From Stegostoma tigrinum (Eukaryota), in the NCBI RefSeq assembly GCF_030684315.1, contig NW_026728203.1, positions 124,001 to 188,000 on the forward strand: a stretch of DNA of 64,000 nt. The letters are read 5' to 3'. The position numbers and the translations under genes were made by a program. The notes under the pieces are model-generated. The model saw only the letters and a program-made list of their open reading frames with translations. It searched no databases and was not told where the DNA came from. Positions 1 to 62,049 of this stretch are shown here, piece by piece (positions within the stretch are counted from its first letter, which is position 1; every line of letters begins with the position of its first letter).

Positions 1-281
1 AAATTGACCAAGACCAGATCATCCCTCCAGAGTTAGATGAAAAATCACCAAGGGTTACATTGTCCAGAGACAGCAAGCTGGGCATCCACATCCAGGAGCC
101 AGTTGGACATGAAGACAATGTTCAAAACTTGACCAGAGAGTCAGTGTTAAGACCTGCACTAGATTGCAACAGGGGAAGGGCCACAGAAAATAATACATGT
201 TACAGCTAATTCATTAACTCAGCATAAAAACCAAACAGGTCAACACTATCATAGCACAGGCTTCAATTCCACAAAGCTCAC

Positions 282-383
282 CATGGAGAGGTAAACATAG
301 GAGGAATAGAGCTCCAGGTTGATCTGCTTGTTAACAGCATCCTCACAGTCCTTGTGGTAGTTCTGACACACTCGGGAAACCAT
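282..383 (-). CDS. Ferritin copy 0, exon 1 only (rest of gene lies left of the window)
   Basis: Reads [34 protein letters not shown] then a GTGAG donor (ctcac at 277-281). TATA at 453-460. Confidence 0.9.
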
Positions 384-421
384 CTTCACTATTCCTGCTC
401 ACAAGCACCAAGAAAACTCTA

Positions 422-645
422 GAACTAAGTCTCTCTCTCCCACAGGCTCTTGTATTTATAGTCCTGGGACCATCCTGCAGTCACACAGAGAGAGGCAGAA
501 CTGATGATGACTGACAGTTGCTGCTGGCCAATCAGGAACCACCCATGCATACAGGCACCAATGAGAGAGAGGGGGAGGGTGTGTTAAGCAGAGCTGATCA
601 GAGGTGGAGATGAGAGCCAGGTCTGGATGGTTATTCTGTGATTGG
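422..645 (-). promoter_or_regulatory. Ferritin core promoter: Inr-like TTAGTTC (422-428), TATAAATA (453-460), CCAAT boxes (528-532, 558-562, and one near 641-645)
   Basis: Motifs read directly from the sequence; the same layout recurs upstream of most copies. GCCAATCAG fits the NF-Y consensus. Confidence 0.7.
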
Positions 646-899
646 AACAGCAGGAGGCCATTCGGCATCTCAAACCTTCTGCACCACTCAATCAGGTCAT
701 GGGTCATTTGGTTCTTTTCTAAAAGAAGTCAATTTGGTTTCAAAAAAGTTACACATTTTTTAAAAATTAAGGTGGTTGTGAGCAACTGCACGAGGGATTC
801 AATGAGGAAGAGGGGCATCAGTTTCTCAGCTTGTTGTGCTGGGATTTGGGAAAGAAGGGTGGGAAATTGTCTCTGGGTCATAGAAAAATTATAACAGTG

Positions 900-1230
900 T
901 CTGTGGAAAAGACAGGAAGGATGTTCCTGATTATGGGGGAGGCCAGGACCAGGGTTTGCAATCTAAGGATACGTTTAGGACTGAGGGGAGGAGAAATCTC
1001 TTCACCTCGGGGGGCGGGGTGGTGGAACCTGTGGAATTCTCTGCCACAGAAAAGGATTGAAGCCAAAACAGGAATTGGGGAGAGCTTTGAGGGCTGGATC
1101 AAAAGGGATTGCAGAGAGGGTGAGAATATGGTGCTGAGTTCTGGAATCAGCCACAATCACATGGAATGGCAGAGCAGGCTGGAAGGGATGAATGGCCGAC
1201 TCAACATTTCTTTTCTATGATCCTATGTTT
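900..1230 (+). mobile_element. Old CR1 LINE 3'-end fragment (paralogues near 7710-8060, 21945-22270, 36490-36830, 49625-49940, 62570-62897)
   Basis: Degenerate CR1 ORF2 C-terminus (…RRNLFT…WNSLP…), then the gaatggccgactc 3' UTR motif and a ttctatgat(t/c)ctatg tail. Boundaries approximate. Confidence 0.7.
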
Positions 1231-1249
1231 CTGCAACCAGCGCAGCTAG

Positions 1250-1360
1250 GGTCTTGTGGTTTAGGGGTAATGTCCCGAGCTGTGGACCAGGAGGCCTTGG
1301 TACAAGTTCCTACCAGATCCAGAGCTCTTAAATCATCTCTACAGGCAGATTTAGAAAACA
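1250..1360 (+). mobile_element. Degenerate tRNA-derived SINE (paralogues near 8080-8190, 22295-22400, 36855-36962, 49965-50073, 62920-63030)
   Basis: A-box-like gtggtttaggggta and B-box-like ggtacaagttcc at tRNA-like spacing, ending in an AT-rich gatttagaaaac. Family not assigned. Confidence 0.5.
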
Positions 1361-3529: not shown

Positions 3530-3705
3530 CTTCTAGTTCACTAATGTCCTTGTTTGTAAGAAACTGCCATCCTTACCTGCTCTGGCTTATGTGTAACCCC
3601 ACGGCCACAGCAAAGGGGTTTAATTTGAATTACTCATGGGCTGGGTGGGTAATCAGAGATGGATAATAAATGCTGCCCGTCAGTGATAGCCTGATCCTGT
3701 TAAAG
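3530..3705 (+). mobile_element. Degenerate SacSINE1/Deu-SINE-like fragment (paralogues near 10965-11135, 24555-24725, 38990-39165, 53480-53650; weaker near 17950, 32350, 45645, 58655)
   Basis: gttcactaatgtcctt…ctgccatccttacctg…tctggc…ccacagca…ataaatgctg resembles my recollection of the shark SINE consensus; not checked by search. Confidence 0.5.
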
Positions 3706-4802: not shown

Positions 4803-7193
<2,391 letters not shown>

Positions 7194-9308
7194 CTTCACT
7201 ATTCCTGCTCACAATCACAAGGACAACTCTGGAACAAAGGCCTCAATCCCCAAAGCTGTTGTGTTTCTACTCCTGAGACAACCGGCACTCACCCAGAGGG
7301 AGACCGAACTGATGATGACTGACAGTTGCTGCTAGCCAATCAGGAGCCACCCCTGCATACAGGCACCAATGAGAGAGAGGGGGAGGGTGTGTTAAGCAGA
7401 GCTGATCAGAGGTGGAGATGAGAGTCAGGTCTGGATGGTTATTCTGTGATTGGAACAGCAGGAGGCCATTCGGCATCTCAAACCTTCTGCACCACTCAAT
7501 CAGGTCATGGGTCATTTGGTTCTTTTCTGAAAGAAGTAAATATGGTTTGAGAAAAGATTGCTCGTTTTGTTTTTAAATTATGGTGGTTGTGATCAACTGC
7601 ACAAGGGACTCATTGAGGAAGGGGAGTGTCAGTTTCTCAGCCTGTTGTGCTGGGATTTGGGAAAGAAAGGTGGGAAATTGGCTCGGGGTCATCGAAAATT
7701 GTCATAGTGTCAGCTGTGGAAAAGACAGGAAGGATGTTCCTGATGATGGAAAAGTTTAGGATCAGGGGTCACAGCCTAAGGACACATTTAGGACTGAAAT
7801 GAGGAGAAATCTCTTCACCGAGAGAGTGGGGGTCCTGTGGAATTCTGTGCCACAGAAAACATTTGAGGCCAAAACTTTGAATGTTTTCCAGGAGCAGTTG
7901 GGTGTAGCTTTGAGGGCTGCAGGGATCAAAGAGTATGGAGAGAGAGTGGGAAGATGGGACTGAGTTATGGAATCAGCCACAATCACATGGAATGGCAGAG
8001 CAGTCTGGAGGGGGCTGAATGGCCGAATCCAACAATTTTTTTTCGATGATTCTAAGTTTGTACAACCAGTGCAGCCAGGGTATTGTGATGCAGGGGTAAT
8101 GTCCCTAGCTGTGGACCAGGAAGCCTTGGTCCAAGTCCATACCAGATCCAGAGATTTTGTAACATCTTTACAGGCAGAATTAGAAAACAACCAGAACAGG
8201 TGCAGGCACAAAGGACCGAATGGCCGCCTGCTGTGCCACAACAATTCTCCGATTCTGTGATGGGTCTGTACCTGAGCAGCATCTCCCTGCCTCCAGCTCC
8301 TGCCTGTGGATTGTCACCTCGCAGTGATGGAGAGCCTCGAGTGTTCTGTTGGTTCTGAGAGTGATACCTGAAGAGGATTTCACCTCCTGGCAGGGCCACC
8401 CAGGACGGTACGATCGAGGGGAGGGTCCTGGTAAAGTGCAATGCAAAACAAGTTCCCAACGGCCATCCAGGTGGAAGATAGGCGTGTGCTATCGTTGGCT
8501 GTGACGGTGGGTGAAGGTCAGCAGTGGGGGGATCCCCAGTCAACATTTCTTTGCCAGTGGAACTGGGTCTACCTTGTGTAAAGGACCATGTCTCTGCTGA
8601 TGTGTAACAGCTTTCCCACATTAAAGGTGCCTTGTACAGGTGCCCACTGAGAGGAGTACAAAGGCCCTCTCCAAACTCTGAGAATTTCCTGGGGGAACAT
8701 GCAGAGGATTTTTAATGATAGGAGGCCATTTGGCCCATCGTGCCTGATTCAGTTTCTGAAAGCATTCCACACCCAGCCCCACTCTCCAGCCCTATGTCTG
8801 TATCCCTCTAAATTTGCCACTTCCATATATGTATACAGCTGCTTTTCTAAAGCCACCTACGGAATCTGCGTCCATCACTCCTGTCAGCTACGCATACCAA
8901 ACCCTACCAACTTTCTGAGTGAAGAGGTTTCTCCTCCTCTCACTGTGAGCTCCCTCACTGACAAATTGTGACCCCTCGTCACTAACGTATCCACTGGTGA
9001 AAACAGAATATCCCCCTTTACCCTGACAGAATTGGTGATAATTTTGATCACTTCAACAAGTGCTCCTTGCTCCAAGGAGAATAAGCGCTATTTCTTTAAT
9101 CTTTCCGTGTGTCTGAAATTCCCCATTCCAGGTGTCATTATTATAAATCACCTTTGAACTCTGTCCAGGGCTTGCATGCCCTTCCTTAAAAGCCACGCCC
9201 AGAACTGAGCACATCACTGCAAATGTGGTCTAACCAATGAGTTGTAGAGGGGTATCATCAATTCCTTGCTTTTATACTCGATGCCTCAATTTGAAAACAC
9301 AAGGTTCA

Positions 9309-12264: not shown

Positions 12265-14674
12265 TCAATGGAGTGGCAGCCTGTCAAACATGTAGTCTCC
12301 AATGCCATCGTCAGGGGCTCCCAGTCTCTTCAGGTTGGTGGTGTGATCTCCCAGCTTCTTGATCATCTTCACTTACTTATCCAAGTAGTGCCTCTCCATG
12401 AAATCATAGCTGGAAGACAAAATTAATCCAACAAGGATCAAAAAATGTCAGTGACCTCCCATGACAGAAGTGACCATCACCTCCCTATGGGGGAGGGGCA
12501 TGCAAGTGATGCCTTCACAAGGTTTTGTTTAAACATCCTGCAGGAGGCAGGTAGAAAAATAATTGGATTCCCCACCCTGGAAGTACACAAACAGATCACT
12601 TTCTACCAGGAAAGGGATAAAACCTCACATGAGGGTCTATGTGGTCAGAGGCAAGTTTGTGCAGATCCAGCAGACTCTGGTTCACATCCTTCTCCATCTG
12701 CAGAGCTCTCTGCATCACCTCCAGACCATTGCCGCACTCATCCTGCTCTGGCTTCTGAAGGGAGGGAAGCAGGAACAGAAAGCACAGCTCAGCAGGCAGT
12801 TCTATCATTAGTCTACATCTGATCAGTTAGTTATCCCTCATCATTTCCAGGGGTTACATTCAGACAAAAAATTTTACTTGGATACAAAAACCCTCTAGAT
12901 TTTATGCTGGCCTGAGAATAAAGAAATGTTAACATATCTCACTGTTACTGTGAATTCTGAAAGAAGTCGTATCTAGAATCAGTCGCAATGGAAGTAATCC
13001 CTTGCTTTACTGTTTGATGTAGTGACCAGAATGGTCCCAAGGCATTACAAACCTCTTCTAGATGTAGTGAGGTTGGATGCTGCTGCTTTTTGTAGCTGCA
13101 AGTTCTCAGCCTTACCTTTTGTTACCTCACCTTGTCCATATAGAGTCACATACAGGGACATGTGCTCACCATCCAGTAGCCTGGATCATCTGAATTGCCT
13201 TCTGCTATTGAGTCACAAATGCAAAGTATTTCCCTTTTCCCTAAACAAATCCTGTTTCGGGGAACAACTTGCCCTTGACATAGTATTTGATCAATCCTGA
13301 AGCTAAATAGATGGAGATACCATTCGATTGTAGCTGCTCAAAAAGCTGCAAACAGACAGACATTCTCAGAATCCAACCTTGATGTCCTGCAGGAGGACTC
13401 AGCCTCCACGTTTATTCTGGAATGCCATCAGTTTCTCAGCGTGTTCCCGCTCCTCATGGGACTGCTCCTTGAAGAACTCAGCAAAGTGATGGAGGGCAAC
13501 ATCATCCCGGTCAAAGAGAGAGAACTGCAAACAGACAAAATGGGAAGTAAATTTCACTCAATTCAGCTTGGTTTTGCTCACGAAATGGAAGTTAGATGGA
13601 CAGTAAGAAGACAGGTATTTACATTTATGGTCATCCATAAACTAAACTAGACAGATATTTGTTCAAACATCTAGAAATAAAGATTAAGTAGCACCCGCTA
13701 CAACCGCTGGTAGGTGACTTGGTGAGACAGTGCACGGTGACGGTCACAGCTGGCAACAGGCATTAGACATCCCTGCACTGCAGGTCAGAAACACTATTAC
13801 CCAGTGCTGGAAGCCAATCAGGGCATTGTCCAACTGAATGAAGGGACATGTGCATGTTGACCAAGAGAAGCTGAAATCTGAGCTCCTCACATTACCAACA
13901 TCACTCATCTGATTTAGCCCCACTGTCCTAACACCTCATCTGCACAAGAGACAGTGACTGATTTTTGTTCCAGATAATCCATCTTGGGAGTGGAAAAAGT
14001 CTGCTCCTCATAAGTAGCAACTAAAAACCATGAAGGAAAGGTCACCGGACCAAAAACAGGAACTGATTTCTCACCACAGATCCTACCAGACCCACTAAGC
14101 TTTTCCAGCAGCTCATTTCAGTCTTTTATTTCCAGTAGTTAATCACAGTTAGGATGTTTATTAAAAAAAAGGCTTCATTAAAAGGACAAGATATAAAAAG
14201 TTAGATTTGGACTGATGCAAGCTTCCACAAGGATGTAAATGATTTCAAATATAAATGGGCCATTGATATCAACATGGAAGGAGGAGTTGAATTAAGAAGC
14301 AGAACCAGGCCATCCCTCAGCACCAAAAATGTGCTCTGCCCAGAATTACAACATACTGGGGACTCCTAGACAAGAGCCAGCTCCAACACAAGACAAGCTT
14401 AAAATTGCTACAGAATTAGCATTAAGAGCACTCACAGGATTCATTCCAGGAAGGACAACAGACAAGATATATGGTAGTACTAAATCATTGAGCAAGAAGC
14501 CACTTAAAGGCTCAGTACAATCATATCACAGCCCTAACACTGAAATAGACCATTCAAGATCACAAGCCTCACCATGGAGAGGTAAACATAGGAGGAATAA
14601 AGCTCCAGGTTGATCTGCTTGTTAACAGCATCCTCACAGTCCTTGTGGTAGTTCTGACACGCTTGGGAGGCCAT
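12265..14674 (-). pseudogene. Ferritin pseudogene, copy B. Exons 14674-14573, 13524-13378, 12754-12629, 12409-12265
   Basis: Premature TGA in exon 2 (13399-13401, RGG*), 2-bp deletion at the start of exon 4 (145 nt), TAA replacing the ferroxidase Gln codon (12373-12375), and a promoter deletion. Confidence 0.92.
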
Positions 14675-15881
14675 CATCACTAGCCTTGTTCATTAAAACC
14701 AAGACCACCCTAGAACTGAGTTGCTCCCCGACAAGCTCTGTATTTATACTCCTGGGGGCCATCCCGCACTGACACAGAGAAGGGCAGAACTGATGATGAC
14801 TGGCAATTGAAAAAAGCTTTAACATTTTGTTTCTAAATTAAGGCGGTTGTGACAAACTGCACGAGGAAGTCAATGAAGAAGAGGTGTCAGTTTCTCAGCC
14901 TGTTGTGCTGGGATATGAGACAGAAAGGTGGCAAATTGGCTCTGGGTCATAGAAAACTGTGACAGGATCAGACGGGGCAAGGACAGGAAGGATGTTCCCA
15001 ATGATGGGGGAGTCCAGGATCAGGGTATCCTGATGTAAGAGGACTGGGTTGGACATTTAAGACTGAGAGGAATACAAACCCAAAATTTACAAAAGTTCCT
15101 GGGTGGACATTCAGAGGATTTTTAACGACAGAGGCCATTCAGCCCATCATGTCCGTATCGGCTTCCGAAAGAGCTACCCACCTAGTCCCCCTCTCCAGCC
15201 CTATACCCTCTATATTCGTCACTCCCAAGTATATATCCAGCTCTTGTTTTGAAGCCACCTATGGGATCTACCTCCGCCACTCTCCCAGGCATCAGATTCC
15301 AAATCCTAACAACCTTCTGAATAGAGAGGTTTGTCCTCATCTCAGAGCTCCCTTACTGACAAATTGTGACCCCTCACCACTGCCGTATCAACTGGTGAAA
15401 ACAGGATATCCTCCTTTACCCTGCCAGAATGTTCATTATTTTTGTCACTTCAACGGGGACACCTCTTAATCAACTATGCTTCAAGGAGATTTATCCCAAT
15501 TTCCTTCATCTTTCCTTGTATCTAAAATCCCTCATTCCTGGTGTCATTCTCGTAAATGCCCTTTGAACTCTGTCGAGGGCTTTAATGTCCTTCCTTAAAT
15601 ACCATGCCCAGAACTGAACACAGTACTGCAAATGTGGTCTAACCCATGATTTGTGGAGGTGTAACATCTATTCCTCGCTTTTATACTCTCCGCATCTATT
15701 TGAAAACACACATTTCACAAAAGCCTTCTTCATAGCAGGTTAGTCCCGCTCGGCCACTTTCAGATAATCACATACTTGAAACCCAAAGTCCCTCTGCTCC
15801 CGTACTCACCTCAGATTTGTAACATCGAGCCTGTTTTGTCTTTCTATGTTTCTCAACCAAAATGCATTAATCTTTTATGTT

Positions 15882-19129: not shown

Positions 19130-21422
19130 TCAGCTGAGTGTGAGCCTGTCAAACAGGTACTCTCCCGTGCCATTGTCAGGGGCTCCCAGTCTCTTCAGGT
19201 TGGTGATGTGATCTCCCAGCTTCTTGATCATCTTCACTTGCTCATCCAAGTATTGCCTCTCCAGGAAGTCAAACAGCTGGAAGAGAAAATTAATCCAGAG
19301 GATCAAAAGTGTCTGAAAGTGACCCCCATGACAGATGTGACCATCACAACCAGGTGGAGGTCCACTGAGGTGATGCATTTGTAAGTTTGTTTTAACAGCC
19401 TGCAGGAGGCTGCGAGAAGGTAATTGGATTTTTACCCAGAGAGTGCACAAACACACCACTTTCTTCCAAGAAGAAAGTTTACAAACTCACATGAGGGTCA
19501 GTGTGGCCAGAGGCGAGTTTGTGCAGATCCAGCAGACTCTGGTTCACATCCTTCTCCATCCGCAGAGCTCTCTGCATTGCCTCCAGACCACTGCCCCACT
19601 CATCCTGCTCTGGCTTCTGGAGGGAGGGAAGCAGGAACAGAAAGCACAGTTCAGCAGGCAGTTGTATCATTAGTCTACATCTGATCAGTTAGTTATCCCT
19701 CATCATTGTAGGGGAGGTACTGCAAACCAACTTGAATTTGAAGACAACAACTAGATTTTGTACTGAGGGAATAACAAATTTTCTAAACACATTCTACTGT
19801 TAATGTAGATTCTCAGAATTCACATGTAGAGAATAGGTACCAATGGAAGTAATTCCTGGCTTCACTATTGTGGTGTTAGAAACATCTTCCAGATTCAGAA
19901 AGGCTGGACACTGCTACTTTCCACAGTGCAACAATTTCCTGTCTTAGCTTTTGTTACCTCATTCTGTCTGAAGGAGAGTCATTCACATTGATGTCTACTC
20001 ACTATTCTGGTTCCTCTCAATTGCCCTCATAAGTGCAGAGTATTTCCTTTCACCTAAAGGAATCCTATTTTGGTGAACACCCTCCCCTTCACAGTATTTG
20101 TTCAAGGCTAAAGCTAAATAGATGGAGATACTAGTCGATTGTAGCTGCTCACAAAAAGCTGCAAACAGAAGGCTTCAGAATCTAACCTTGATGTCCTGCA
20201 GGATGACTCGACCTCCACGTTTATTCTGGAATGCCATCAGTTTCTCAGCGTGTTCCCGTTCCTCATGGGACTGCTCCTTGAAGAACTCAGCAAAGTGATG
20301 CAGGGCAACATCATCCCGGTCAAAGTAAGAGAACTGTGGGGAGAGAGAGGCTAAAAGGAAACTGTCTGAAATTCATGAATGACACTCCTCACTCTGGAAC
20401 TAACCTGGGCACCATCTTGATTCCACATTTAAGTGGTTAAAAAAAAAACACAGACAAAGCAGCAAGTCACCTTCCATGGATGATGAAGGGGAGAGCTGTC
20501 TATAGCCATTAGACATCCCTGCTCTGCAGGTTAGAAACACTATTGTTCAGGAGGTGGAGACCAGTTCGGCCCCTGTCCAACTGAATGAAGGGACATGTGT
20601 TCATTAACACAACCAGAAAGCTCAGTCAGCAGTCTCATTATCACTATCACCCACCTGAATAACCGCAGTGCCCTCCCACCCACTCCACAGAATTTTAACT
20701 GCTTTGTTAGAGAGAAAGAAAAAAAAAACACATACATAGTCTGAAAGTGTGCCCCTTTCCTCACATTGCATAGCTCAAAGCCACTTCTGAGAAAGGGTCA
20801 ATGGACCCAGAGCTTGGATTTCTTCCAGCTCTGTAGAGCTTTTCTAGCTATTTTTGTTAGTGTTTAATGTCTAGCAGCAGCTGTTCTTTGAGTTCAGGGA
20901 ACTTTACATCTTGAGCACAAGACAGTCCGGTGAATAGGGCGAGGTTTTAAAAAAGGAGTATATTTGTGTCAGGAAAAGTTTCCACCAGGGAAGGCTTTTG
21001 TTGAGAAAAGGAATACAACCAAAGTTTTACAAAAATTAATTATTGACCAAGACCAGATCATCCCTCCAGAGTTAGATGAAAAATCACCAAGGGTTACATT
21101 GTCCAGAGACAGCAAGCTGGGCGTCCACATCCAGGAGCCAGTTGGACCTGAAGACAATGTTCAAAACTTGACCAGAGAGTCAGTGTTAAGACCTGCACTA
21201 GATTGCAACAGGGGAAGGGCCACAGAAAATAATACATGTTACAGCTAATTCATTAACCCAGCGTAAAAACCAAACAGGTCAACACTATCATAGCACAAGC
21301 TTCAATTCCACAAAGCTCACCATGGAGAGGTAAACATAGGAGGAATAGAGCTCCAGGTTGATCTGCTTGTTAACAGCATCCTCACAGTCCTTGTGGTAGT
21401 TCTGACACACTTGGGAAACCAT
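19130..21422 (-). CDS. Ferritin heavy/middle-type subunit, copy C, intact ORF of 173 aa. Exons 21422-21321, 20333-20187, 19616-19491, 19276-19130
   Basis: Canonical exon lengths, GT-AG sites and no stops. TATAAATG at 21492-21499. Exon 4 begins [10 protein letters not shown], where other copies read [10 protein letters not shown]. Confidence 0.92.
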
Positions 21423-24400
21423 CTTCACTATTCCTGCTCACAAGCACCAAGAAAACTCTAGAACTAAGTCTCTCTCTCCCACAGGCTCTTGCATTTATAG
21501 TCCTGGGACCATCCTGCAGTCACACAGAGAGAGGCAGAACTGATGATGACTGACAGTTGCTGCTAGCCAATCAGGAACCACCCCTGCATACAGGCACCAA
21601 TGAGAGAGAGGGGGAGGGTGTGTTAAGCAGAGCTGATCAGAGGTGGAGATGAGAGCCAGGTCTGGATGGTTATTCTGTGATTGGAACAGCAGGAGGCCAT
21701 TCGGCATCTCAAACCTTCTGTACCACTCAATCAGGTCATAGGTCATTTGGTTCTTTTCTAAAAGAAGTCAATTTGGTTTCAAAAAAGTTTTCACATTTTT
21801 TAAAAATTAAGGTGGTTGTGAGCAACTGCACGAGGGATTCAGTGAGGAAGAGGGGCATCAGTTTCTCAGCTTGTTGTGCTGGGATTTGGGAAAGAAGGGT
21901 GGGAAATTGTCTCTGGGTCATAGAAAATTGTAACAGTGTCAGCTGTGGAAAAGACAGGAAGGATGTTCCTGATTATGGGGGAGGCCAGGACCAGGGTTTG
22001 CAGTCTAAGGATACGTTCAGGACTGAGGTGAGGAGAAATCTCTTCACCTCGGGGGGCGGGGTGGTGGAACCTGTGGAATTCTCTGCCACAGAAAAGGATT
22101 GAAGCCAAAACAGGAATTGGGGAGAGCTTTGAGGGCTGGATCAAAAGGGAATGCAGAGAGGGTGAGAATATGGTGCCGAGTTATGGAATCAGCCACAATC
22201 ACATGGAATGGCAGAGCAGGCTGGAAGGTATGAATGGCCGACTCAACATTTATTTTCTATGATTCTATGTTTGTGCAACCAGCGCAGCTAGGGTCTTGTG
22301 GTTTAGGGGTAATGTCCCTAGCTTTGGACCAAGAGGCCTTGGTACAAGTTCCTACCAGATCCAGAGATCTTAAATCATCTCTACAGGCAGATTTAGAAAA
22401 CAACCAGAACAGGTACAGGCACAAAGGACCGAATGGCCTCCTGCTGTGCCATAACAATTCTCCGATTCTGTGGTGGGTCTGTACCTGAGCAGGATCTCCC
22501 TGCCTCCAGCTCCTGCCTGTGGATTGTCACCTCGCAGTGATGGAGAGCCTCGAGTGTTCTGTTGGTTCTCAGAGTGATAAGTGAAGAGGATTTCACCTCC
22601 TGGCAGGGCCACCCTGGACGGTACGATCGAGGGGAGGGTCCTGATAAGGTGCAATGCAAAACCAGTTCCCAGCGGCCATCCAGGTGGAAGATAGGTGTGT
22701 GCGATCGTTGGCTGTGACAGTGGGTGTTGGTCAGCAGTGGGGGGATCCCCAGTCAACATTTCTTAACCTGTGGAACTGGGTCTACCTTGTGTAAAGGAGC
22801 ATGTCTCTGCTGGCGTGTAACAGCTTTCCCACATTAAAGGTGCCTTCTACAGGTGGAATTCAAACCCCGTCCCCAAACTCTCAGAATTTCCTGGGTGGAA
22901 ATTCAGAGCGTTCTTCACAACAGGAGGCCGTTCAGCCCACCGTTCCTGTATTAGCTTCTGAAAGAGCTACCTGATTAGTCCCACTTTCCAGCCCTATCTC
23001 TGTCCCTCTCTAAATTCGTCACTTCCAAGGACATATCCAACTCTTGTTTTGAAACCTCCCATGGAATCCACCTCCGTCACTCTCCCAGGCAGCGCATTCC
23101 AAATCCGAACAACTTTGAGCAAAGAGGTTTCTTCCCATTTCACTCTGATCTCCCCTACTGACAAACTGTGACTTCTCGTCACTGACAAGTCAACTGCTGA
23201 AATCAGAATATCCTGTTTACTCTATCAAAATTGTTCATAGTTTTGATCACGTCAACAAGGTCACCTCTCAATAAGGTCCACTGCAAGGAGATTTACCCCA
23301 TTTTCCTTCATCTTTCCGTGTATCTAAAATTCCTCACTCCTGGGGTCATTCTAATAAATCTCCTTTGAACTCTTTTGAGGTTTTTCACATCCTTCCTTGA
23401 ATGCCACGCCCAGAACTGAGTACATAATGGAAATGTGGTCTAACCAATGATTTGTAGAGGTGTAACATCAATTCGTTGCTTTTATACTCGATGCCTCAAT
23501 TTGAAAACACAAGGTTCACATAAGTGGCTAAATCTCCATTAATAACAGTTTCATCCTGCCTGATCACTTTCATATAATCACACACTTGAAACCGAAAGTC
23601 TCTGAGCTCCTGTACTCACATCAGATTTGTAACATCGAGCCTGTTTTGTCTTTCTGTGTTTCTTCTACGAAAATGCATTACTCACTTTTTTTATGTCTTG
23701 AAATTGGAAAGTGATTGGCAACATCAAACCTTGTGCAGTAAATATCTGTGCGTGCAGATATTGTCCTTTCCACAAAGTAACTGTTTTTGACATGGTCCTG
23801 GATGATGTAGTTCTCATGTGAAGATTGTCATCCCATTCTACGCACAGTCCGAGATGATCATTGAGAAGAAATGGGTTCTTTCCTCTCTACCCTGTCAAAT
23901 CCATTAATCCTCCGAAAAATATCAATTACAGCCATCCTTTAACCTTCTACACAGAGGGACTGGACAAGCCGTTATCATGAATTAACCATCACTCTGTCCA
24001 GGTTACTTCCAGAAATTCCGTGCATAACCATCTTTGGGTCGAACCTGCCAGAACTGTGCACTCCGGCTGTGGTTGAACAGGAACTTGACCATTTCACCAA
24101 AACCTCTCCATCCAGAGGTATTTGAACCCCTCAGAGATCTGGGCCAACATTAGTTTCGAGAATGTGGTGATTTGCCTTCCTGCATTACTGTAGCCCATTT
24201 GGTGTAGGCAAATCGATACTGCTGTTAGGGAGGGAACGTGGAGTTGTGATTCCAACGCCGGGTGATCGGTGTAGAATGTGGAGATGCGTGGTGTTCCTAC
24301 ATATCTGCAGCCCTTGTCCGATGGAAAGTAGTTATGGTTTCAAGAAGTTGTCTAAGGAGCTTTGGTAGATGGTATATATTGCAGTCTCTGCGTATGTCAG

Positions 24401-27134
24401 TGGTGGAAGGATTGACGAGAGTGGCTACTCGTTTGATGGAGGCTGTCAACATTCTGGAGTGTTAGACTGCTACCTGTTATCCTGAGTCTGTCTGACATCA
24501 CTGAATTTCACGGACATCATTCTCATTCCAGAAGACAGGGTCCAAACAAGCCTCTTCTGGTTCACTAATGTCCTTGTTTGTAATAAACTGCCATCCTTAC
24601 CTGATCTGGCCTATGTGTAACCCCACAGCAAAGGGTTTTAATTTGAATCACTCATGGGCTGGCTGGGTAATCAGAGATGGATAATAAATGCTGCCTGTCA
24701 GTGATATCCTGATCCTGTTAAAGCACTTACACAAACCCGTCACATTGTAATTCAGGGCTGATTGATAGTGATTAGGCCCCCACAGTGCTCTGTGTGGAGT
24801 CACAGGTCAGCCAGTCGACAGCAGGAGAGCTGATCTGCTTGAAAATTGAACACAAAGGTAAAAATTGGAACTGCCAATTTCTGCACGTGGTATTTGCATT
24901 TTAGCTTGATTTTCCACCAGGCATCTGCAGTATTTGTCACCTCTTTGCAAGGTCGTAATAGAAATTATCACACAGGGAACAAGGTGGGCACTGCTTCATT
25001 CCCAAGGCACTTCCTAGTCATTAGCATTCTAAGACAAGGTAGATTTTTCTTTCTCCTACATCTAAGAAGGAAATACCGAAGAAACTAATTCAACAGCTCG
25101 AGGAACAGTGACATAAGCAATTGCTTATCAAAAGGGTAAAACCTGCAGCAAAGCAGTGTATATTACTCTTTAAAAGGAGGAATTGTACAATCTACTAAAG
25201 TCAGTAACATCTAGGCCTTATAACAAGTTGCTGGAAAACACCTCACTGTCAGTCAACACAAAAACAAAATCAAATGAAGAGATGATCACGTGTCTCATGT
25301 CCAGGTTCTGTTCAACCCGTCTCCCTCCCAATGCTGCCAAACCTGAGATTTCCCAGCAGGTTTTGATCCTGGTTTCTAGAAACTGCTTATTTTAAAAGAG
25401 ACCCAAACACATGGCCAAGGGCAGTGCATTAGATCAGTGCCTAACCTTTAGGCAAAGGAATGATTTCAGTGTGTGTATTGATTAGAAGCTGGTCCTGCAA
25501 ACTTGTCCCTGTGAGTACATGTCAGTAATGCTGATTTATCTGTCAACAACCTTACCAGTTATGGAATTTCCAATCAAAGGACTACCCACTGAATCCCCAG
25601 ACACAGCAGAATCAAACACTGATCAAGTTACTGGGGCAGGCATTGAATCCAAGGTTGTCACAAAGAACAAAGGATTGATGATCAGACGTTAAAACACAAA
25701 GCTCCAAGAACCAGAAGCTATGAAAATACAACACTGTACTCAGTTCCATGGTGAACATGATTTTAATTTGCTCAGAGCACAACTAGTCATTGAGAAGAAT
25801 TAAGTCACCATGTACAACAGATATAGATATTGACCCCACTCAGCTGAGTGAGAGCCTGTCAAACAGGTACTCTCCCATGCCATTGGCAGTGGCTCCCAGT
25901 CTCTTCAGGTTGGTGGTGTGATCTCCCAGCTTCTTGATCATCTTCACTTGCTCATCCAAGTAGTGCCTCTCCAGGAAGTCACACAGCTGGAAAGCAAAGA
26001 GGAGAACTGGTTAAATCTGACCAAATGCAGCTTGGGAGACCGAACAGTGAAGTGATGTCATGGAGATTGCCAAATACACGCAAGAAAGTGCTCAGTTTTA
26101 GAAACAGGAGGATCTTGGTATAACCCAAGAAAACCCTCCACAATGTCAAGTGAGATCTTGTGGCTAACAAAAAGGACCAAGTGTCTGATCCCTGGTTTTA
26201 GACAAAATCCCAGATTTAAATACACCACACTCACATGAGGGTCCGTGTGGCCAGAGGCCAGTTTGTGCAGATCCAGCAGACTCTGGTTCACATCCTTCTC
26301 CATCTGCAGAGCTCTCTGCATTACCTCCAGACCATTGCCCCACTCATCCTGCTCTGGCTTCTGGAGGGAGGGAAGCAGGAACAGAAAGCACAGCTCAGCA
26401 GGCAGTTGTATCATTAGTCTACATCTGATCAGTTAGTCATCCCTCATCATTGTAGGGGAGGTACTACAGGCCAACTTGACCTTGGTAAAACACATGCTGT
26501 ATTTGGTACTGTTCTTGAAGGGGGACATTTCTAAATAAATCCTGCTATGCTGTGATCAGAATGATCTCAAGGCATCAGAAACATCCTCGAAGTATAAAGG
26601 CTTCATACTGATGCTTTCCACACCTGAAAGATTTCTGTTTTCCCTTTTGACACCTCATCTTGTCCAAAGCAACGGTAGACACCGATATGTGCTCACCATC
26701 CAGAATAAAGGATGATCACAATTGCCAACTGTTGTTCAATCACAAGTGCAAAAGTGTTTCCTTTTAGTGAAGGGAATCATATTGTGCTGAGCAACCTCCC
26801 ATTCATACAGTATTTGTCTAATCCTGAACCTGATCATATTGAGATATCAGTCCATTGTATTGAGCTGAAAAAATTGAATCCAACCTTGATGTCCTGCAGA
26901 AGGACACGACCTCCACGTTTATTCTGGAATATGATCAGCTTCTCAGCATGTTCTCGCTCCTCATGGGACTGCTCCTTGAAGAACTCAGCAAAGTGACGCA
27001 GGGCAACATCATCCCGGTCAAAGTAAGAGAACTGTGGGGAAAGAAACAGGCAGGAAAGGGAAATGTATCTGAAATTCAATGGCACTCCTCAATCAGAAAC
27101 TAACCCAGTCACCATCTTGATTCCACATTTAATG

Positions 27135-27785
27135 ACAAAAGAGCTGTAGCACAGGAGCAGGCTTTGACCCTCCAACACTGCACCGAGCGACATCTGGTCT
27201 CAAATCGGTCATCTATTTTCAAAGGGGCTGTATCCCTTTGCTCCCTGCCCATCCATGTACCTGTCCAGATAGATCTTAAGACACTAGTGTGACTGCGTCT
27301 ACCACCTCCACAGGCAGTGTGTGCCAGGCACCCTCCAACCTGTGTAAAGAGCTTTCCAAACATATCCACATGATAAATTGCCTGTAGCATTCAGTGGTAT
27401 GGGGGTTATAGGGGAAATGGGTCTGGGTGGGATGCTTCAAGGGCCAGTGTGCACTGAGCTAAAGGGCCTGTTTCCACACTGAAAGGAATCTCACCCAATC
27501 TTCCCTGCTCTTACTTTGAGCTCATGACCCCTAGTAATTGAGTTCCCCACTCAAGGAAAAAGCTTCTTGCTATCCACCTTGTCTACACCCCTCATGAATT
27601 TGAGGAGCTCAATCAGGACCCCACCCCCAAATCTGCCACCTTCTCATGAAAATAATGCTCATCTACTCAACCTTTCTTCGTAGCTCACACCCTCCATACC
27701 AGGCAACATCCTGGTGAACCTCCTCTGCACCCCCTTCCAAAGCATTCACATCCTTTTGTTAGTATGGCAACCAGAACTGGACATT
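27135..27785 (-). mobile_element. CR1 3' fragment in intron 1 with a nested, oppositely oriented SINE fragment (paralogues near 41590-42250 and 56055-56575)
   Basis: ccataccaggcaacatcctggtgaacctcctctgcacc is the reverse complement of CR1 VQRRFTRMLPGM. The 3'-end motif acaggagcaggc is near 27150. Confidence 0.75.
27368..27497 (+). mobile_element. 5'-truncated HE1/V-SINE-like fragment nested in the CR1 relic (paralogues near 41827-41955 and 56290-56410)
   Basis: taaattgcc…ggggaatgggtctgggtggg…aagggcctgtttccacactg…aatct resembles the 3' half of the shark HE1 SINE, from memory. Confidence 0.55.
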
Positions 27786-28781
27786 TAATTACTGGAACAT
27801 GATAGACAGGCAGAAGGTCTTCTCCCATGGATTATAGAAGAAAGAGAGGACACACAACCAGCCGATCAAGGACGCAGCACTGAATGAAAGAGCACGTGGA
27901 TGGACAGAGCCATGAATCATGGTGAACGCCAGCATTACAAACATCACCCACCTGAATAACCCCACTCTGTCCTACCATCAACTCAGCACTGAGTTCTAAC
28001 TGGTTTCTTTTTCTGTAATTCAGATTTGGAGTATGAAAACATGCCACACTTGTCTTTCCTCCTACTGAATAGGTAGAGGACTTTTGGGGAAGAGTCACTG
28101 GACCCAAAACATGAACTGATTTCTCTAAATCCTGCCAGATCTGTAAAGCTATTCCAGCTATTTTTGTTGCTGTTTCTAATTTCCAGCAGTTGCTTTTCTT
28201 TTAGAAGAGAACTATTTCAGACCAGAGCAGCCTGGTGAATGGGGCAAAGTTTTAAGAGTGCAAGTACATTTTGCATAGAAATATTCACCAGGGAAATCTT
28301 CTCTTTAAAAGAAAATTGTAACCAAATTTAAGGAAAATATAGGTTTATCAGCAACATCAGCTCATCCCTTCAGAGGAAGGAGAAAAGTCACTAAGGAGTA
28401 CATTGTCCAGAGATAACAAAGTGGCCATTGTCACCCAGGAGTCAGTTGCAATACAAGACAAACTTCAAGTTTCCAACAGAGTCAGTGTGAACCATTTCAC
28501 TGGGATTCAGTCAGGGAAGGGCCACAGACCAAAACACATGCTACAACTAAATCATGAAACTAGGCAAGAAAATAAACCTAAGAGAGTCAATGCAAATATA
28601 TCACAGGCTTCAATTTGAGGTCAGGTCTTCAATGTCAGAAGGCTCACCATGGAGAGGTAAACATAAGAGGAAGGGAGCTCCAGGTTGATCTGATTGTTAA
28701 CAGCATCTTCACAGTCCTTGTTAATAAAATGTGAGGCTGGATGAACACAGCAGGCCAAGCAGCATCTCAGGAGCACAAAAG

Positions 28782-28811
28782 CTGACGTTTCGGGCCTAGA
28801 CCCTTCATCAG
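28782..28811 (-). ncRNA. Minimal hammerhead ribozyme motif in the Penelope-like 3' terminal repeat
   Basis: Minus strand reads CTGATGA-AGGGTCTAGGCCC-GAAAC-GTC-AG: both catalytic boxes, a GGG/CCC stem II and a GUC cleavage triplet, as described for Penelope-like elements. Confidence 0.75.
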
Positions 28812-29825
28812 AGAGGGGGATGGGGGGAGGGAACTGGAATAAATAGGGAGAGAGGGGGAGGCAGACCGAAGATGGAGAGTAAAGAAGATAGGTGGAGAGG
28901 GTGTAGGTGGGGAGGTAGGGAGGGGATAGGTCAGTCCAGGGAAGACGGACAGGTCAAGGAGGTGGGATGAGGTTAGTAGGTAGTGGGGGGTGCGGCTTGG
29001 GGTGGGAGGAAGGGATGGGTGAGAGGAAGAACCGGTTAGGGAGGCAGAGACAGGTTGGACTGGTTTTGGGATGCAGTGGGTGGGGGGGAAGAGCTGGGCT
29101 GGTTGTGTGGTGCAGTGGGGGGAGGGGATGAACTGGGCTGGTTTAGGGATGCAGTAGGGGAAGGGGAGATTTTGAAACTGGTGAAGTCCACATTGATACC
29201 ATATGGCTGCAGGGTTCCCAGGCGGAATATGAGTTGCTGTTCCTGCAACCTTCGGGTGGCATCATTGTGGCAGTGCAGGAGGCCCATGATGGACATGTCA
29301 TCAAGAGAATGGGAGGGGGAGTGGAAATGGTTTGCGACTGGGAGGTGCAGTTGTTTGTTGCGAACTGAGCAGAGGTGTTCTGCAAAGCGGTCCCCAAGCC
29401 TCCGCTTGGTTTCCCCAATGTAGAGGAAGCCGCACCGGGTACAGTGGATGCAGTATACCACATTGGCAGATGTGCAGGTGAACCTCTGCTTAATGTAGAA
29501 TGTCATCTTGGGGCCTGGGATGGGGGTGAGGGAAGGAGGTGTGGGGACAAGTGTAGCATTTCCTGCGGTTGCAGGGGAAGGTGCCGGGTGTGGTGGGGTT
29601 GGAGGGCAGTGTGGAGCGAACAAGGGAGTCACGGAGAGAGTGGTCTCTCCGGAAAGCAGACAGGGGAGGGGATGGAAAAATGTCTTGGGTGGTGGGGTCG
29701 GATTGTAAATGGCGGAAGTGTCGGAGGATAATGCGTTGTATCCAGAGGTTGGTAGGGTGGTGTGTGAGAACGAGGGGGATCCTCTTGGGGGCGGTTGTGG
29801 TGGGGGCAGGGTGTGAGGGATGTGT

Positions 29826-29858
29826 CTAACCCTAACCCTAACCCTAACCCTAACCCTA
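29826..29858 (-). repeat. Interstitial telomeric repeat, 5.5 x TTAGGG (33 nt, perfect)
   Basis: Plus strand ctaaccctaaccctaaccctaaccctaacccta lies between the truncated element end and the TSD. Confidence 0.95.
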
Positions 29859-29944
29859 TCGCTCTTCACAGTCCTTGTGGTAGTTCTGACACACTTGGGA
29901 GACCATCTTCACTATTCCCACTCACTAAAACCAAGACCACTCAA

Positions 29945-30085
29945 GAAGTGAGTTGCTCTTCCACAAGCTCTGTATTTATAGTCCTGGGACCATCCTGCAC
30001 TCACCCATGGAGAGGCAGAACTGATGATGACTGACAATTGCTGTTAGCCAATCAGGAACCACCCATGCATACAGGCACCAATGAG
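29945..30085 (-). promoter_or_regulatory. Core promoter of copy D: Inr TCACTTC (A at 29949), TATAAATA (29973-29980) and CCAAT boxes
   Basis: TATA-to-Inr spacing is 31 nt. Copy B shows the same spacing (TATA 14741-14748, Inr TCAGTTC with A at 14717); copy F has TATA at 43301-43308. Confidence 0.7.
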
Positions 30086-33574: not shown

Positions 33575-35967
<2,393 letters not shown>

Positions 35968-38900
35968 CTTCACTATTCCTGCTCACAATCACAAGGACAA
36001 CTCTGGAACAAAGGCCTCAATCCCCAAAGCTGTTGTGTTTCTACTCCTGAGACAACCGGCACTCACCCAGAGGGAGACCGAACTGATGATGACTGACAGT
36101 TGCTGCTAGCCAATCAGGAACCACCCATGCATACAGGCACCAATTAGAGAGAGGGGGAGGGTGTGTTAAGCAGAGCTGATCAGAGGTGGAGATGAGAGCC
36201 AGGTCTGGATGGTTATTCTGTGATTGGAACAGCAGGAGGCCATTCGGCATCTCAAACCTTCTGCACCACTCACTCAGGTCATAGGTCATTTGGTTCTTTT
36301 TTAAAAGAAGTAAATATGGTTTGAGAAAAGATTGCTCGTTTTGTTTTTAAATTATGGTGGTTGTGATCAACTGCACAAGGGACTCATTGAGGAAGGGGAG
36401 TGTCAGTTTCTCAGCTTGTTGTGCTGGGATTTGGGAAAGAAAGGTGGGAAATTGGCTCGGGGTCATCGAAAATTGTCATAGTGTCAACTGTGGAAAAGAC
36501 AGGAAGGATGTTCCTGATGATGGAAAAGTTTAGGACCAGGGGTCACAGCCTAAGTACACATTTAGGCCTGAGATGAGGAGAAATCTCTTCCCCAACAGAG
36601 TGGGGGGCCTGTGGAATTCTGTGCCACAGAAAACATTTGAGGCCAAAACTTTGAATGTTTTCCAGGAGCAGTTGGGTGTAGCTTTGAGGGCTGCAGGGAT
36701 CAAAGAGTATGGAGAGAGAGAGTGAAGATGGGACTGAGTTAGGGGATCAGCCACAATCACATGGAATGGCAGAGCAGTCTGGAGGGGGCTGAATGGCCGA
36801 ATCCAACAATTTTTTTTCGATGATTCTAAGTTTGTACAACCAGTGCAGCCAGGGTATTGTGATGCAGGGGTAATGTCCCTAGCTGTGGACCAGGAAGCCT
36901 TGGTCCAAGTCCATACCAGATCCAGAGATTTTGTAACATCTTTACAGGCAGAATTAGAAAACAACCAGAACAGGTGCAGGCACAAAGGACCGAATGGCCG
37001 CCTGCTGTGCCACAACAATTCTCCGATTCTGTGATGGGTCTGTACCTGAGCAGCATCTCCCTGCCTCCAGCTCCTGCCTGTGGATTGTCACCTCGCAGTG
37101 ATGGAGAGCCTTGAGTGTTCTGTTGGTTCTGAGAGTGATACCTGAAGAGGATTTCACCTCCTGGCAGGGCCACCCAGGACGGTACGATCGAGGGGAGGGT
37201 CCTGGTAAAGTGCAATGCAAAACAAGTTCCCAACGGCCATCCAGGTGGAAGATAGGCGTGTGCTATCGTTGGCTGTGACAGTGGGTGAAGGTCAGCAGTG
37301 GGGGGATCCCCAGTCAACATTTCTTTGCCAGTGGAATTGGGCCTACCTTGTGTAAAGGACCATGTCTCTGCTGATGTGTAACAGCTTTCCCACATTAAAG
37401 GTGCCTTGTACAGGTGGAATTCAAACCCTGTCCCCAAACTCTCAGAATTTCCTGGGTGGAAATTCAGAGTGTTTTTCACAACAGGATGCCATTCAGCCCA
37501 CCGTCCTGTAATAGCTTCTGAACGAGCTACCTGATTAGTCCCACTTTCCAGCCCTATTGCTGTCACTCTCTAAATTCGTCACTTCCAAGGACATATCCAA
37601 CTCTTGTTTTGAAACCACCCATGGAATCGACCTCCGTCACTCTCCCAGGCAGCACATTCCAAATCCGAACAACTTTCTGAGCAAAGAGGTTTCTTCCCAT
37701 TTCACTCTGATCTCCCCTACTGACAAACTATGACCCCTCGTGACTGACAAGTCAACTGCTGAAATCAGAATATCGTGTTTACTCTATTAAAATTGTTCAT
37801 AGTTTTGATCACGTCAACAAGGTCGCCTCTCAATAAGGTCACCTGCCAGGAGATTTACCCCATTTTCCTGAATCTTTCCGTGTATCTAAAATTCCTCATT
37901 CCTGGGGTCATTCTAATAAATCTCCTTAAGTGGCTCAATCTCCATTAATAACAGCTTCATCCTGCCTGACCACTTTCAGATAACCACATACTTGAAACCG
38001 AAAGTCTCTGAGCTCCTGTACTCACATCAGATTTGTAACATTGAGCCTGTTTTGTCTTTCTGTGTTTCTTCGACGAAAATGCATTACTCACTTTTTTTTT
38101 TATGTCTTGAAATTGGAAAGTGATTGGCAACATCAAACCTTGTGCAGTAAATATCTGTGCGTGCAGATATTGTCCTTTCCACAAAGTAACTGTTTTTGAC
38201 ATGATCCTGGATGATGTAGTTCTCACGTGAAGATTGTCATCCCATTCTACGCACAGTCCAAGATGATCATTGAGAAGAAATGGGTTCTTTCCTCTCTACC
38301 CTGTCAAATCCGTTAGTCCTCTGAACAATATCAGTTACAGCCATCCCTTAACCTTCTACACAGAGGGACTGGACAAGCCATTATGATGAATTAACCATCT
38401 CTCTGTCCAGGTTACTTCCAGAAATTCTGTGCATAACCATTTTTGGGGTCATACCTGGCAGAACCGTGCACTCCGGCTGTGGTTGAACTGGAACTTGACA
38501 ATTTCACCAAAACCTCTCCATTTGTTATTTGAACCCCTCAGAGATCAGGGCTAACATTAGTTTCGAGAATGTGGTAACTTGCCTTCTTGCATTACTGTTG
38601 TCCATTTGGTGTAGGCAAATCCATACTGCTGTTAGGGAGGGAATGTGGGGCTATGTTTCCAACGCCAGAGGAGCGGTGGCTTAGTGTAGCACGTGGAGAG
38701 GCATGGTGTTCCCACATATCCGCGGCCCTTGTCTGATGGAAAGTAGTTATGGTTTTAAGAAGTTGTCTGAGGAGCTTTGGTGGATTCCTACAGCATTTGG
38801 TAGATGGTATATAGTGCAGTCTCTGCATATGTCAGTGGTGGAAGGATTGACTAAAGTGGCTGCTCGTTTGCTGGAGGCTGTCAACATTCTGGAGTGTTAG

Positions 38901-40268: not shown

Positions 40269-43234
40269 TCAGCTGAGTGAGAGCCCGTCAAACAGGTACT
40301 CTCCCATGCCATTGTCAGGGGCTCCCAATCTCTTCAGGTTGGTGATGTGATCTCCCAACTTCTTGATCATCTTCACTTGCTCATTCAAGTCGTGCCTCTC
40401 CAGGAAGTCACACAGCTGGAAAGCAAAGAGGGGAACTGGTTAAATCTGACCAAATACAGCTTGGGAGACCTAACAGTGAAGTGATGTCATGGAGATTGCC
40501 AAATACACGTGAGCAAGTGCTCAGTTTTAGAAACTGGAGGATCTTGGTATAACCCAAGAAAACCCTCCACAATGTCAAATGAGATCTTGTGGCTAACGAA
40601 AAGGTCCAAGTGTCTGATTCCTGGTTTTATACAAAATCCCCGATTTAAATACACCACACTCACATGAGGGTCTGTGTGGCCAGAGGCCAGTTTGTGCAGA
40701 TCCAGCAGACTCTGGTTCACAACCTTCTCCATCTGCAGAGCTCTGCATTGCCTCCAGACCATTGCCCCACTCATCCTGCTCTGGCTTCTGGAGGGAGGGA
40801 AGCAGGAACAGAAAGCACAGCTCAGCAGGCAGTTGTATCATTAGTCTACATCTGATCAGTTAGTTACCCCTCATCATTGTAGGGGAGGTACTACAGGCCA
40901 ACTTGACCTTGGCAAAACACCTGCTGTATTTGGTACTGTTCTTGAAGGGGACATTTCTAAACAGATCCTGCTATGCTGTGATCAGAATGATCTCAAGGCA
41001 TCAGAAACATCTTTAGATGTATAAAGGCTTCATACTGATGGTTTCAGCACCTGAAAGATTTCTGTTTTCCCTTTTGACACCTCATCTTGTCCAAAGCAAC
41101 GGTGGACACTGATATTTGCTCACCATCCAGAATACTGGATGATCTCAATTGTCAACTGTTGTTCAATCACAAGTGCAAAAGTATTTCCTTTTAGTGAAGG
41201 GAATCTTATTGTGTGATCAACCCCCCATTCATACAGCATTTGTTCAGTCCTGAAGCTAAACTGATTGAGCTAGCCACAATTGAGTGGTATTTCACAAAAA
41301 GCAGAAAAAGAAAGCTTTGGAATCCAACCTTGATGTCCTGCAGGAGGATTCGGCCTCCACGTTTATTCTGGAAAGCCATCAGTTTCTCAGTGTGTTCCTG
41401 CTCCTCATGGGACTGCTCCTTGAAGAACTCAGCAAAGTGACGCAGGGCAACATCATCCTGGTCAAAGTAAGAGAACTGTGGGGAGAGAGAGAGAGAAAGG
41501 CAGGAAAGGGAAACATATCTGAAGTCAATCAGTGGCACTCCTCAAACAGAAACTAACCTGGTCACCATCTTGTTTCCACATTTAAGAACAAAGAAAATCA
41601 CAGCACAGGAACAGGCCCTTTGGCCCTCCAAGCCTGCACCGATTGAGATCCTGTTTACGTCTGTCATCTCTTTTCTGCAGTCAGTATCCCTTTGCTCCCT
41701 GCCCATCCATGTACCTGTCCAGCTGGATCTTAACACACTAGCGTGACTTCGTCTACCACCTCCACAGGTTATGTGTGCCAGGCTCCCTCCAACCTCTGCG
41801 TAAAGAGCTTTCCAAGCATATCCACATGCTAAATTGCCCATAGCATTCAGAAGTATGGGGGATATAGGGGAATGTGTCTGGGTGGGATGCTTCAAGGGCC
41901 AGTGTGGACTTGGAGCTAACGGGCCTGTTTCCATACTGAAAGGAATCTAACCCAATCTCCCCTAAAAACATTGCTGCTCTTACTTTGAGCTCATGACCCC
42001 TGTAATTGAGTCCCCCACTCTAGGAAAAAGCTTCTTGCTATCCACCTTGTCTACACCCCTCATGAATTTGAGGGGATCAATCAGGACCACACCCCCAAAT
42101 CTCCCACCTTCTCGTGAAAATAAGCCTCATCTACTCAACCTTGCTTTCTAGCTCACACCCTCCATACCAGACAACATCCTGGTGAACCTCCTCTGTACCC
42201 CTTCCAAAGCATTCACATCCTTTTGTTAGTGTGGCAACCAGAACTGGACATTTAATTACTGGAACATGATAGACAGGCAGAAACAAGAGGTCTTCTCCCA
42301 TGGATTATAGCCAAAAGAGAGGACATAGAACCAGCCAATCAGGAACACTGCAGTGAATGAAGGGACACATGGATGAACAGAACCATGAATCGCAGTGAGC
42401 TCCAGCATTATCAACATCACCCACCTGAATAACCCCACTCTGTCCTACCTTCTCCCCAGCACTAAGTTCTAACTTGTTTCTTCAGTATTTCACATGTGGA
42501 GTGTGAGAACATACCACACTTGTCTTTCCTCCTGCTGAATAGCTAGGAGGATGTCTTCTGAGGAAGGGTCACTGGACCCAAAACATGAACTGATTTCTCT
42601 ATAAGTCCTGCCAGATCTGTAAAGCTATTCCAGCTCTTTATGCTGTTCCTAATTTCCAGGAGTTGCTGTTCTTTTAGAACAGAAAAACTCATTTAGGGCC
42701 AGAGCAGAGGACAGCCTGGCAAATGGAGCAACATTTTAATAGTGCAAGTACATTTTGCACAGAAACATTCACACTAGGGAAAAGTGTTTCTTTCAAAAAT
42801 TGCAACCAAATTTAAAGGAAAATATAGGTTTATCAGCAACACCAGCTCATCCCTTCAGAGCAAGGAGAAAAATCACAAAAGGGGTACATTGTCCAGAGAT
42901 AACAAAGTGGCCATGGTCACCCAGGAGTCAGTTGCAATACAAGACAAACATGAAGTTTCCAACAGAGTCAGTGTGAACCATTTGACTGGATTCAGTCAGG
43001 GAAGGGCCACAGACCAAAACATATGCTACAACTAAATCATTAAACTAAGCAAGAAAATAAACCTAAGAGAGTCAATGCAAGTCTATCACAGGCTTCAATT
43101 TGAGGTCAGGTCCTCAATGTGACAAAGCTCACCATGGAGAGGTAAACATAGGAGGAATAGAGCTCCAGGTTGATCTGCTTGTTAACAGCATCCTCACAGT
43201 CCTTGTGGTAATTCTGACACACTTGGGTGACCAT
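40269..43234 (-). pseudogene. Ferritin copy F, probable pseudogene. Exons 43234-43133, 41475-41329, 40787-40664, 40415-40269
   Basis: Exon 3 is 124 nt (agagctctgc versus agagctctctgc near 40740), giving a frameshift. The conserved Tyr of RHYL is changed to Asp in exon 4. Confidence 0.8.

Positions 43235-46824: not shown

Positions 46825-49110
<2,286 letters not shown>

Positions 49111-54761: not shown

Positions 54762-55948
<1,187 letters not shown>

Positions 55949-59837: not shown

Positions 59838-62049
<2,212 letters not shown>

Follow-up and report, generated by a model that had tools for sequence, protein, structure and literature searches.

The tandem ferritin array of Stegostoma tigrinum is very probably devoid of iron-responsive elements

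We find that the copies of a tandem ferritin array in Stegostoma tigrinum very probably carry no iron-responsive element (IRE). Vertebrate H, L and M ferritin mRNAs normally carry one at their 5′ end, where it is bound by IRP1/IRP2 and serves as the textbook example of a translational switch operated by iron. Our favoured reading, which we hold to be fairly probable, is that the array belongs to an IRP-independent, ovarian, shark-specific tandem ferritin family whose ancestor already lacked the IRE. The window, as the whole stretch of DNA under analysis is called here, is 64 000 nucleotides (64 kb) long; all positions refer to it.

The ferritin array and its copies

Self-comparison and six-frame searches of the 64-kb window revealed ten four-exon ferritin copies, arranged head-to-tail in tandem, all on the minus strand and 6–8 kb apart. 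Promoter and exon 1 are present in nine of the ten, the exception being an orphan copy (54762..55948) for which neither was found. The copy with its ATG at 383-381 is cut by the window edge, and its remaining body lies to the left of the window. Among the nine copies seen in full, three (ATG at 7193, 21422 and 49110) retain an intact 173-aa frame together with their splice sites, and six are broken by stops, frameshifts, lost splice sites, an insertion or the loss of exon 1. The copies, with the promoter types (A to C) described further below, are as follows.

282..383, minus strand: coding part of exon 1 (34 codons) of the copy with its ATG at 383
4803..7269, minus strand: g7193, type B, intact reading frame, decayed TATA and Inr
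12271..14748, minus strand: g14674, type C, broken, stops in exons 2 and 4
19130..21499, minus strand: g21422, type A, 173-aa frame intact, spliced contig in agreement with the exon structure
25840..29980, minus strand: g29906, type C, broken, insertion of ~1.1 kb within exon 1
33575..36043, minus strand: g35967, type B, broken, decayed TATA and Inr, exon 3 one base over length
40269..43308, minus strand: g43234, type C, frameshift in exon 3, stemless CAGTGG at -17
46825..49187, minus strand: g49110, type A, intact 173-aa frame
54762..55948, minus strand: orphan copy, exons 2-4 only, exon 2 acceptor lost
59838..62126, minus strand: g62049, type A, broken, exon 2 donor lost, frameshift in exon 3

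Between the two intact type A copies pN/pS was 1.19 on 11 changes, which is no purifying signal, and between these copies and g7193 it was 0.47–0.57; selection among the intact window copies appears weak, as judged from few changes. The array would turn over by birth and death, so that its functional dose would lie well below the copy count. The original prediction that the family is controlled by copy number is weaker than it implied, with six of nine copies broken and one of the three intact ones (g7193) lacking both TATA and Inr.

Several other features of the window concern single copies or the spacers. Upstream ATGs have been gained at -19 and -3 in the broken copy 14674 (window 14675-14693). 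The insertion in copy 29906 (28721-29868) has 5.5 TTAGGG repeats at one end, is flanked by a 16-nt target-site duplication and contains a GIY-YIG-like frame (29036-29506) that scored 22.4 bits, just below the cut-off of 22.6; we take it to resemble a truncated Penelope-like element. LINE-type reverse transcriptase fragments lie in the spacers at 51272-52354, 9386-9988 and 15960-16478, and RVT_1 was confirmed for the first of these. Minus-strand ORFs of 129–189 aa occur upstream of type A and B copies, and the one that was tested gave no Pfam match. A bacterial promoter scan of the window, irrelevant for shark DNA, returned nothing.

IRE searches and predicted leaders

No IRE, the canonical 5′ form of which has been described (PMC13026281; 10.1101/2020.05.01.071498), was found by Rfam, a custom covariance model or rule-based scans in the UTR, coding exons, 3′ flank or spacers across the 64 kb. 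The controls were 80 ferritin loci from metagenome assemblies. At gathering scores Rfam had no match in the whole 64-kb window, and at E up to 10 it gave six weak matches in positions 1-8000, none of them to an IRE family. Among the 20 control loci scanned, Rfam IRE_I found just two (53.3 and 46.2 bits), so that Rfam alone is a narrow test. The rule scan (CAGWGN loop, C at -6, five pairs) matched 25 of the 80 control loci, with the loop at least 82 nt before the coding match in 23 of the 25. Near the nine promoters it found no IRE, even with relaxed loops, and with such loops the three predicted intact mRNAs and nine promoters contained no C bulge with at least four of five stem pairs. The custom model was trained on 16 control IREs from the rule-scan matches; at E up to 1 it detected 35 of the 64 control loci outside the training set, and 33 of these scored at least 16.9 bits. 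In the window its best score, with filters off, was 15.2 bits, and of the 24 matches at E up to 10 not one was a sense-strand match in the 1.7 kb preceding an ATG.

Three candidates were rejected. The minus strand of the window holds 245 CAGWGN sites, four of which have a C bulge and at least four of five pairs; the sole site with a C bulge and all five pairs, CAGTGT at 31201, has four G-U pairs and a LINE-like context and lies 1.3 kb before a broken copy. The CAGTGG at -17 in copy 43234 has no C bulge and two of five upper-stem pairs. Finally, the seven best sense-strand matches of the custom model are a stem in intron 2 (20093-20121, and at the equivalent place in six further ferritin copies: 5775, 34567, 41235, 47799, 55707 and 60605; 10.8–15.2 bits), which has IRE-like arms, is loop-less and is skipped by the spliced contig described below. 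The likeness of these arms is probably due to chance, the stem having no CAGUGN loop and being spliced out.

The absence of any CAGTGN between TATA and ATG, as first proposed, holds for eight of the nine copies and fails for 43234. As a random 43-nt stretch taken from the window contains CAGTG in only 5.4% of cases, a missing loop is in itself unremarkable, and the test must be against ferritin controls. At the other end of the mRNAs, CPE-like 3′ motifs were seen in three of eight scanned copies; both intact type A copies lack them, a point against the reading we favour. Since the whole upstream spacer of eight copies lies within the window and is IRE-free, the absence is independent of the start site: neither an upstream start nor a non-coding exon within the spacer could supply an IRE to these eight. 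The proposed escape from IRP repression is thus well supported on sequence grounds, and better than in the original prediction, no IRE having been found in the whole window. Taken together with established IRE/IRP biology (PMC11719527), this would mean no IRP block on translation: IRP1/2 would find no binding site on the array mRNAs, and translation would not wait for iron.

The promoter region of the copy with its ATG at 383 contains the following elements.

384..426, minus strand: predicted 43-nt 5′ UTR, no IRE and no notable structure (z = 0.37 for 381-430)
422..428, minus strand: Inr-like TTAGTTC, predicted +1 at the A at 426
453..460, minus strand: TATA box TATAAATA, at the same place in seven of nine promoters
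486..710, minus strand: conserved proximal promoter block with three CCAAT/ATTGG boxes (-149, -179 and -262 from the ATG)

On the minus strand TATAAATA begins 77 nt before the ATG (383-381) and is separated from it by 69 nt, in agreement with the distance of about 70 nt given in the original prediction. It is present in six of nine copies, and copy 21422 carries TATAAATG in its place. The promoters fall into three types, A (ATG 383, 21422, 49110 and 62049), B (7193 and 35967) and C (14674, 29906 and 43234). In copy 383 the Inr A lies 34 nt after the TATA start, which gives a predicted UTR of 43 nt; the same length is predicted for seven of nine promoters, namely the four of type A (Inr A at +34) and the three of type C (+31). 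The two type B copies have TAGAAACA at the TATA place and no Inr match, so that no start site is predictable there. An Inr 31–34 nt from the TATA start and a predicted UTR of ~43 nt, as originally proposed, thus hold for seven promoters and not for the two of type B. Because the window copies are non-independent, their agreement on 43 nt amounts to one or two observations, not seven. Transcription probably starts near -43, to judge from TATA and Inr.

Six UTR stretches were folded and were no more stable than shuffles (z -0.42 to 0.72), although the test is a weak one, with two real IREs scoring only z -0.85 and -1.44. The CCAAT block is better conserved than the UTR: identity between types is 80–100% per 25-nt bin in the block, and only 60–80% from -77 to -28. 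Gene conversion could be another cause of this conservation. Within the block, at 524-535, lies a Y-box-like 12-mer found at the same place in seven copies; the Y-box has been linked to oocyte promoters. Control by transcription, another part of the original prediction, fits the conserved TATA and three-CCAAT block, the control itself being something we infer; transcription would proceed from the TATA/Inr promoter ~43 nt before the ATG and be driven by this block.

Expression in a related organism is indicated by a spliced 697-nt contig aligning to each of the four exons of copy 21422 (21 differences in 531 nt, 96% identical). The contig comes from X1, one of four runs compared out of five, which we guess to be RNA and which stems from another organism than the DNA-like runs. 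Stretches of 987, 570 and 214 nt are missing from it at predicted GT-AG introns, giving three joints, and it extends 19 nt into the UTR; as merely three unaligned letters precede the UTR match, it holds no upstream exon. Its 5′ end was rejected as a start site. Because contigs show no start, level or tissue, this one supports splicing and expression in a relative and not the 43-nt figure. A second X1 contig, at 20235-20325, is more divergent (11 differences in 91 nt) and reveals a further ferritin type in the related organism. The DNA-like runs X2, X4 and X5 (window 19276-20333) also contain exon-exon joints, at low depth and with sides as short as 24–40 nt, and these possibly represent processed ferritin pseudogenes elsewhere in that genome.

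A trace of the promoter was found in other sharks. Three shark database models carry N-terminal extensions before the usual start, and those of P0044 (basking shark) and P0057 (horn shark) read through the promoter: the TATA 15-mer of the window fits their back-translation with no mismatches (0 of 300 shuffles as good), 69 nt before the last Met in basking shark and 79 nt in horn shark. Both proteins resemble the window protein more closely than they do FTH1 (84 vs 75% and 76 vs 61%). Provided that the extensions are unspliced, as this reading assumes, fitting a vertebrate IRE core to them would take at least six mismatches in 19, and with codons chosen freely five stem pairs are reached nowhere, whereas three of three control frames reach them. 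The extension of P0067 was rejected as promoter read-through, with three mismatches and an equally good fit in 68 of 300 shuffles, leaving two of the three extensions informative. At the level of sequence, these data suggest a short IRE-less leader common to at least three shark orders.

Phylogenetic position and comparison with other ferritins

Pfam Ferritin matches exon 2 (43.6 bits), whose best solved relatives are middle-subunit ferritins; the closest named proteins are those of carpet sharks (91–95% identity). The ferroxidase residues E27, Y34, E61, E62, H65, E107 and Q141, in the usual numbering of the centre, are all present in the three intact copies (7/7 in each), and an M-like E57 in two of them. 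No mitochondrial targeting peptide was found, as the 173-aa frame begins at the usual ferritin N-terminus with in-frame stops upstream; judged from the same reading frame, there is no signal-peptide extension at the N-terminus either. In the QVRQNY motif Cys replaces Arg in all nine window copies that have exon 1 (e.g. 366-368), and also in many, not all, shark array proteins.

The tree comprised 75 proteins, 72 of them hand-chosen from 202 matches and mostly full-length, plus three window copies; it was built without L chains and without Greenland shark sequences. The window copies fall within a shark-only clade (support 97/99; 25 rows, all sharks or window copies), which they share with great white shark models and which covers both galeomorph and squalomorph sharks. 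The FTH1 clade (99/97) consists of skate, chimaera, bony fish and tetrapod proteins and excludes the window copies, and a third elasmobranch ferritin group stands apart from both clades. AU tests on whether the array is sister to H, to M or to the other elasmobranch clade, again with no L chains, rejected none of three groupings (p values of 0.21, 0.29 and 0.18). The original prediction treated H, L and M as orthologs of the window copies, which form a separate shark clade. Cartilaginous fishes also possess FTH1-clade proteins, and ordinary iron-responsive storage would be left to such separate FTH1-type genes.

Like vertebrate H and M ferritins (FTH1; frog and teleost M), the array has three introns and a complete ferroxidase centre, and its proteins are 72–75% identical to the H and M proteins. 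It differs from them in lacking the 5′ IRE, in its predicted 43-nt UTR and in its place outside the FTH1 clade. Among sharks, the Greenland and great white shark clusters are tandem and multi-copy, as is the window array (10.1101/2024.09.09.611499). NCBI labels the ferritins of shark clusters heavy chain A/B-like, oocyte isoform-like or higher subunit-like. The Greenland shark preprint labels its copies FTH1 and FTL, whereas the window copies lie outside the FTH1 clade, and reports more than 85% full-length copies, as against three of nine in the window; its main text does not discuss IREs and uses the word 'iron' 0 times (10.1101/2024.09.09.611499).

The array is not alone in lacking the IRE. 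FTMT is likewise an H-like ferritin whose mRNA has no IRE (PMC3925988). FTMT, however, has no introns and bears a targeting peptide of ~60 aa, whereas the array genes have introns, no N-terminal extension and a tandem arrangement. FTHL17, a further H-like ferritin of mammals, is not known to carry an IRE either. IRE-less ferritins are common in invertebrates, where an IRE was reported for two of ten chiton ferritins (10.64898/2026.10.23.761458) and for 47% of non-insect invertebrate ferritins (PMC8395497). Among invertebrate ferritins of this kind (snail, schistosome, chiton, sponge), an IRE-less paralog occurs next to one with an IRE. Schistosome ferritins reportedly lack the IRE, and snail yolk ferritin is not known to have one. 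Yolk ferritins supply oocytes, and the gastropod form is made in the midgut gland and secreted; since the array has no N-terminal extension and belongs to the vertebrate family, its likeness to yolk ferritin would be convergent.

An ovarian programme and its alternatives

The largest ferritin cluster of the Greenland shark is expressed specifically in ovary (10.1101/2024.09.09.611499), and ferritin mRNA is abundant in vertebrate ovaries (PMC1488847). Both observations point to an ovarian role of the array, and we infer that it is the counterpart of the ovary-expressed Greenland shark cluster. The ancestor of the family would have lost its 5′ IRE before tandem amplification in sharks, and a developmental programme in ovary or oocyte, rather than iron, may switch the family on, a view to which we give somewhat better than even chances. 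Array ferritin made there would pre-build iron-storage shells for the egg. A fuller version of this reading is possible but tentative: a ferritin dedicated to the ovary or oocyte may have arisen in sharks from the vertebrate H/M family. Encoded by a very large tandem array and transcribed from a multi-CCAAT germ-line promoter, it would have shed its IRE prior to the split of the galeomorph orders. Such a ferritin would correspond, in a vertebrate, to the yolk ferritin of invertebrates and would load the very large eggs with iron free of IRP control; it is through loss of the IRE that amplification would have become useful.

Alternatively, loss of the IRE may be real and yet an incidental passenger of the founder duplicate, the array being mostly neutral birth-and-death debris that yields little protein and has no adaptive meaning. 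The many broken copies, the loss of TATA and Inr in two of nine promoters and the weak purifying signal among intact copies agree with this, and conservation of the promoter block could reflect gene conversion. We nevertheless regard such debris as rather unlikely, given that the array clade covers galeomorph and squalomorph sharks, ferroxidase residues are intact, a spliced transcript exists in a relative, TATA spacing is kept across three shark orders and the Greenland shark has over 85% full-length copies with tissue-specific expression (10.1101/2024.09.09.611499).

Translation of the array mRNAs could also still be regulated by iron or stage, through a non-canonical IRP site or another element such as 3′ UTR maternal masking. 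Oocyte mRNAs are often under translational control, and an element of a novel kind would escape sequence scans; but relaxed-loop scans of the three intact mRNAs and nine promoters were empty and, in what is a weak test, the six folded UTR stretches were no more stable than shuffles, and we consider this improbable. Least credible of all is a start further upstream with a non-coding, IRE-bearing first exon spliced onto the array genes: the start site is a predicted one, and three of four type A copies have at -91 a sequence weakly resembling an acceptor (12 of 16 pyrimidines followed by CAG), but this site is absent from type B and two type C copies, the 31201 stem is mostly G-U, LINE-like and before a broken copy, and with the full spacer to the next gene IRE-free for eight copies only an exon outside the array, common to all copies, would remain.

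IRE-less ferritins and the expansion of shark ferritins are each known, separately. We found no literature describing a shark array without IRE, in a search that was thin on subscription journals; neither ferritin nor iron is mentioned in the main text of 10.1101/2025.02.19.638963 or of PMC8455134. Loss of the IRE from human L-ferritin leads to unregulated overproduction (PMC11719527). For the ovarian, IRP-independent family that we favour, the consequences would reach beyond the window. Shark ferritin clusters comprise hundreds of reported copies, so far with no explanation; if the family is IRE-less, they would represent a separate iron-independent programme and not an extra dose of FTH1/FTL, which brings the reason for the expansion within reach of direct tests on ovary and eggs. 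An IRE-less family would also caution against reading copy count as general protection from iron or ferroptosis.
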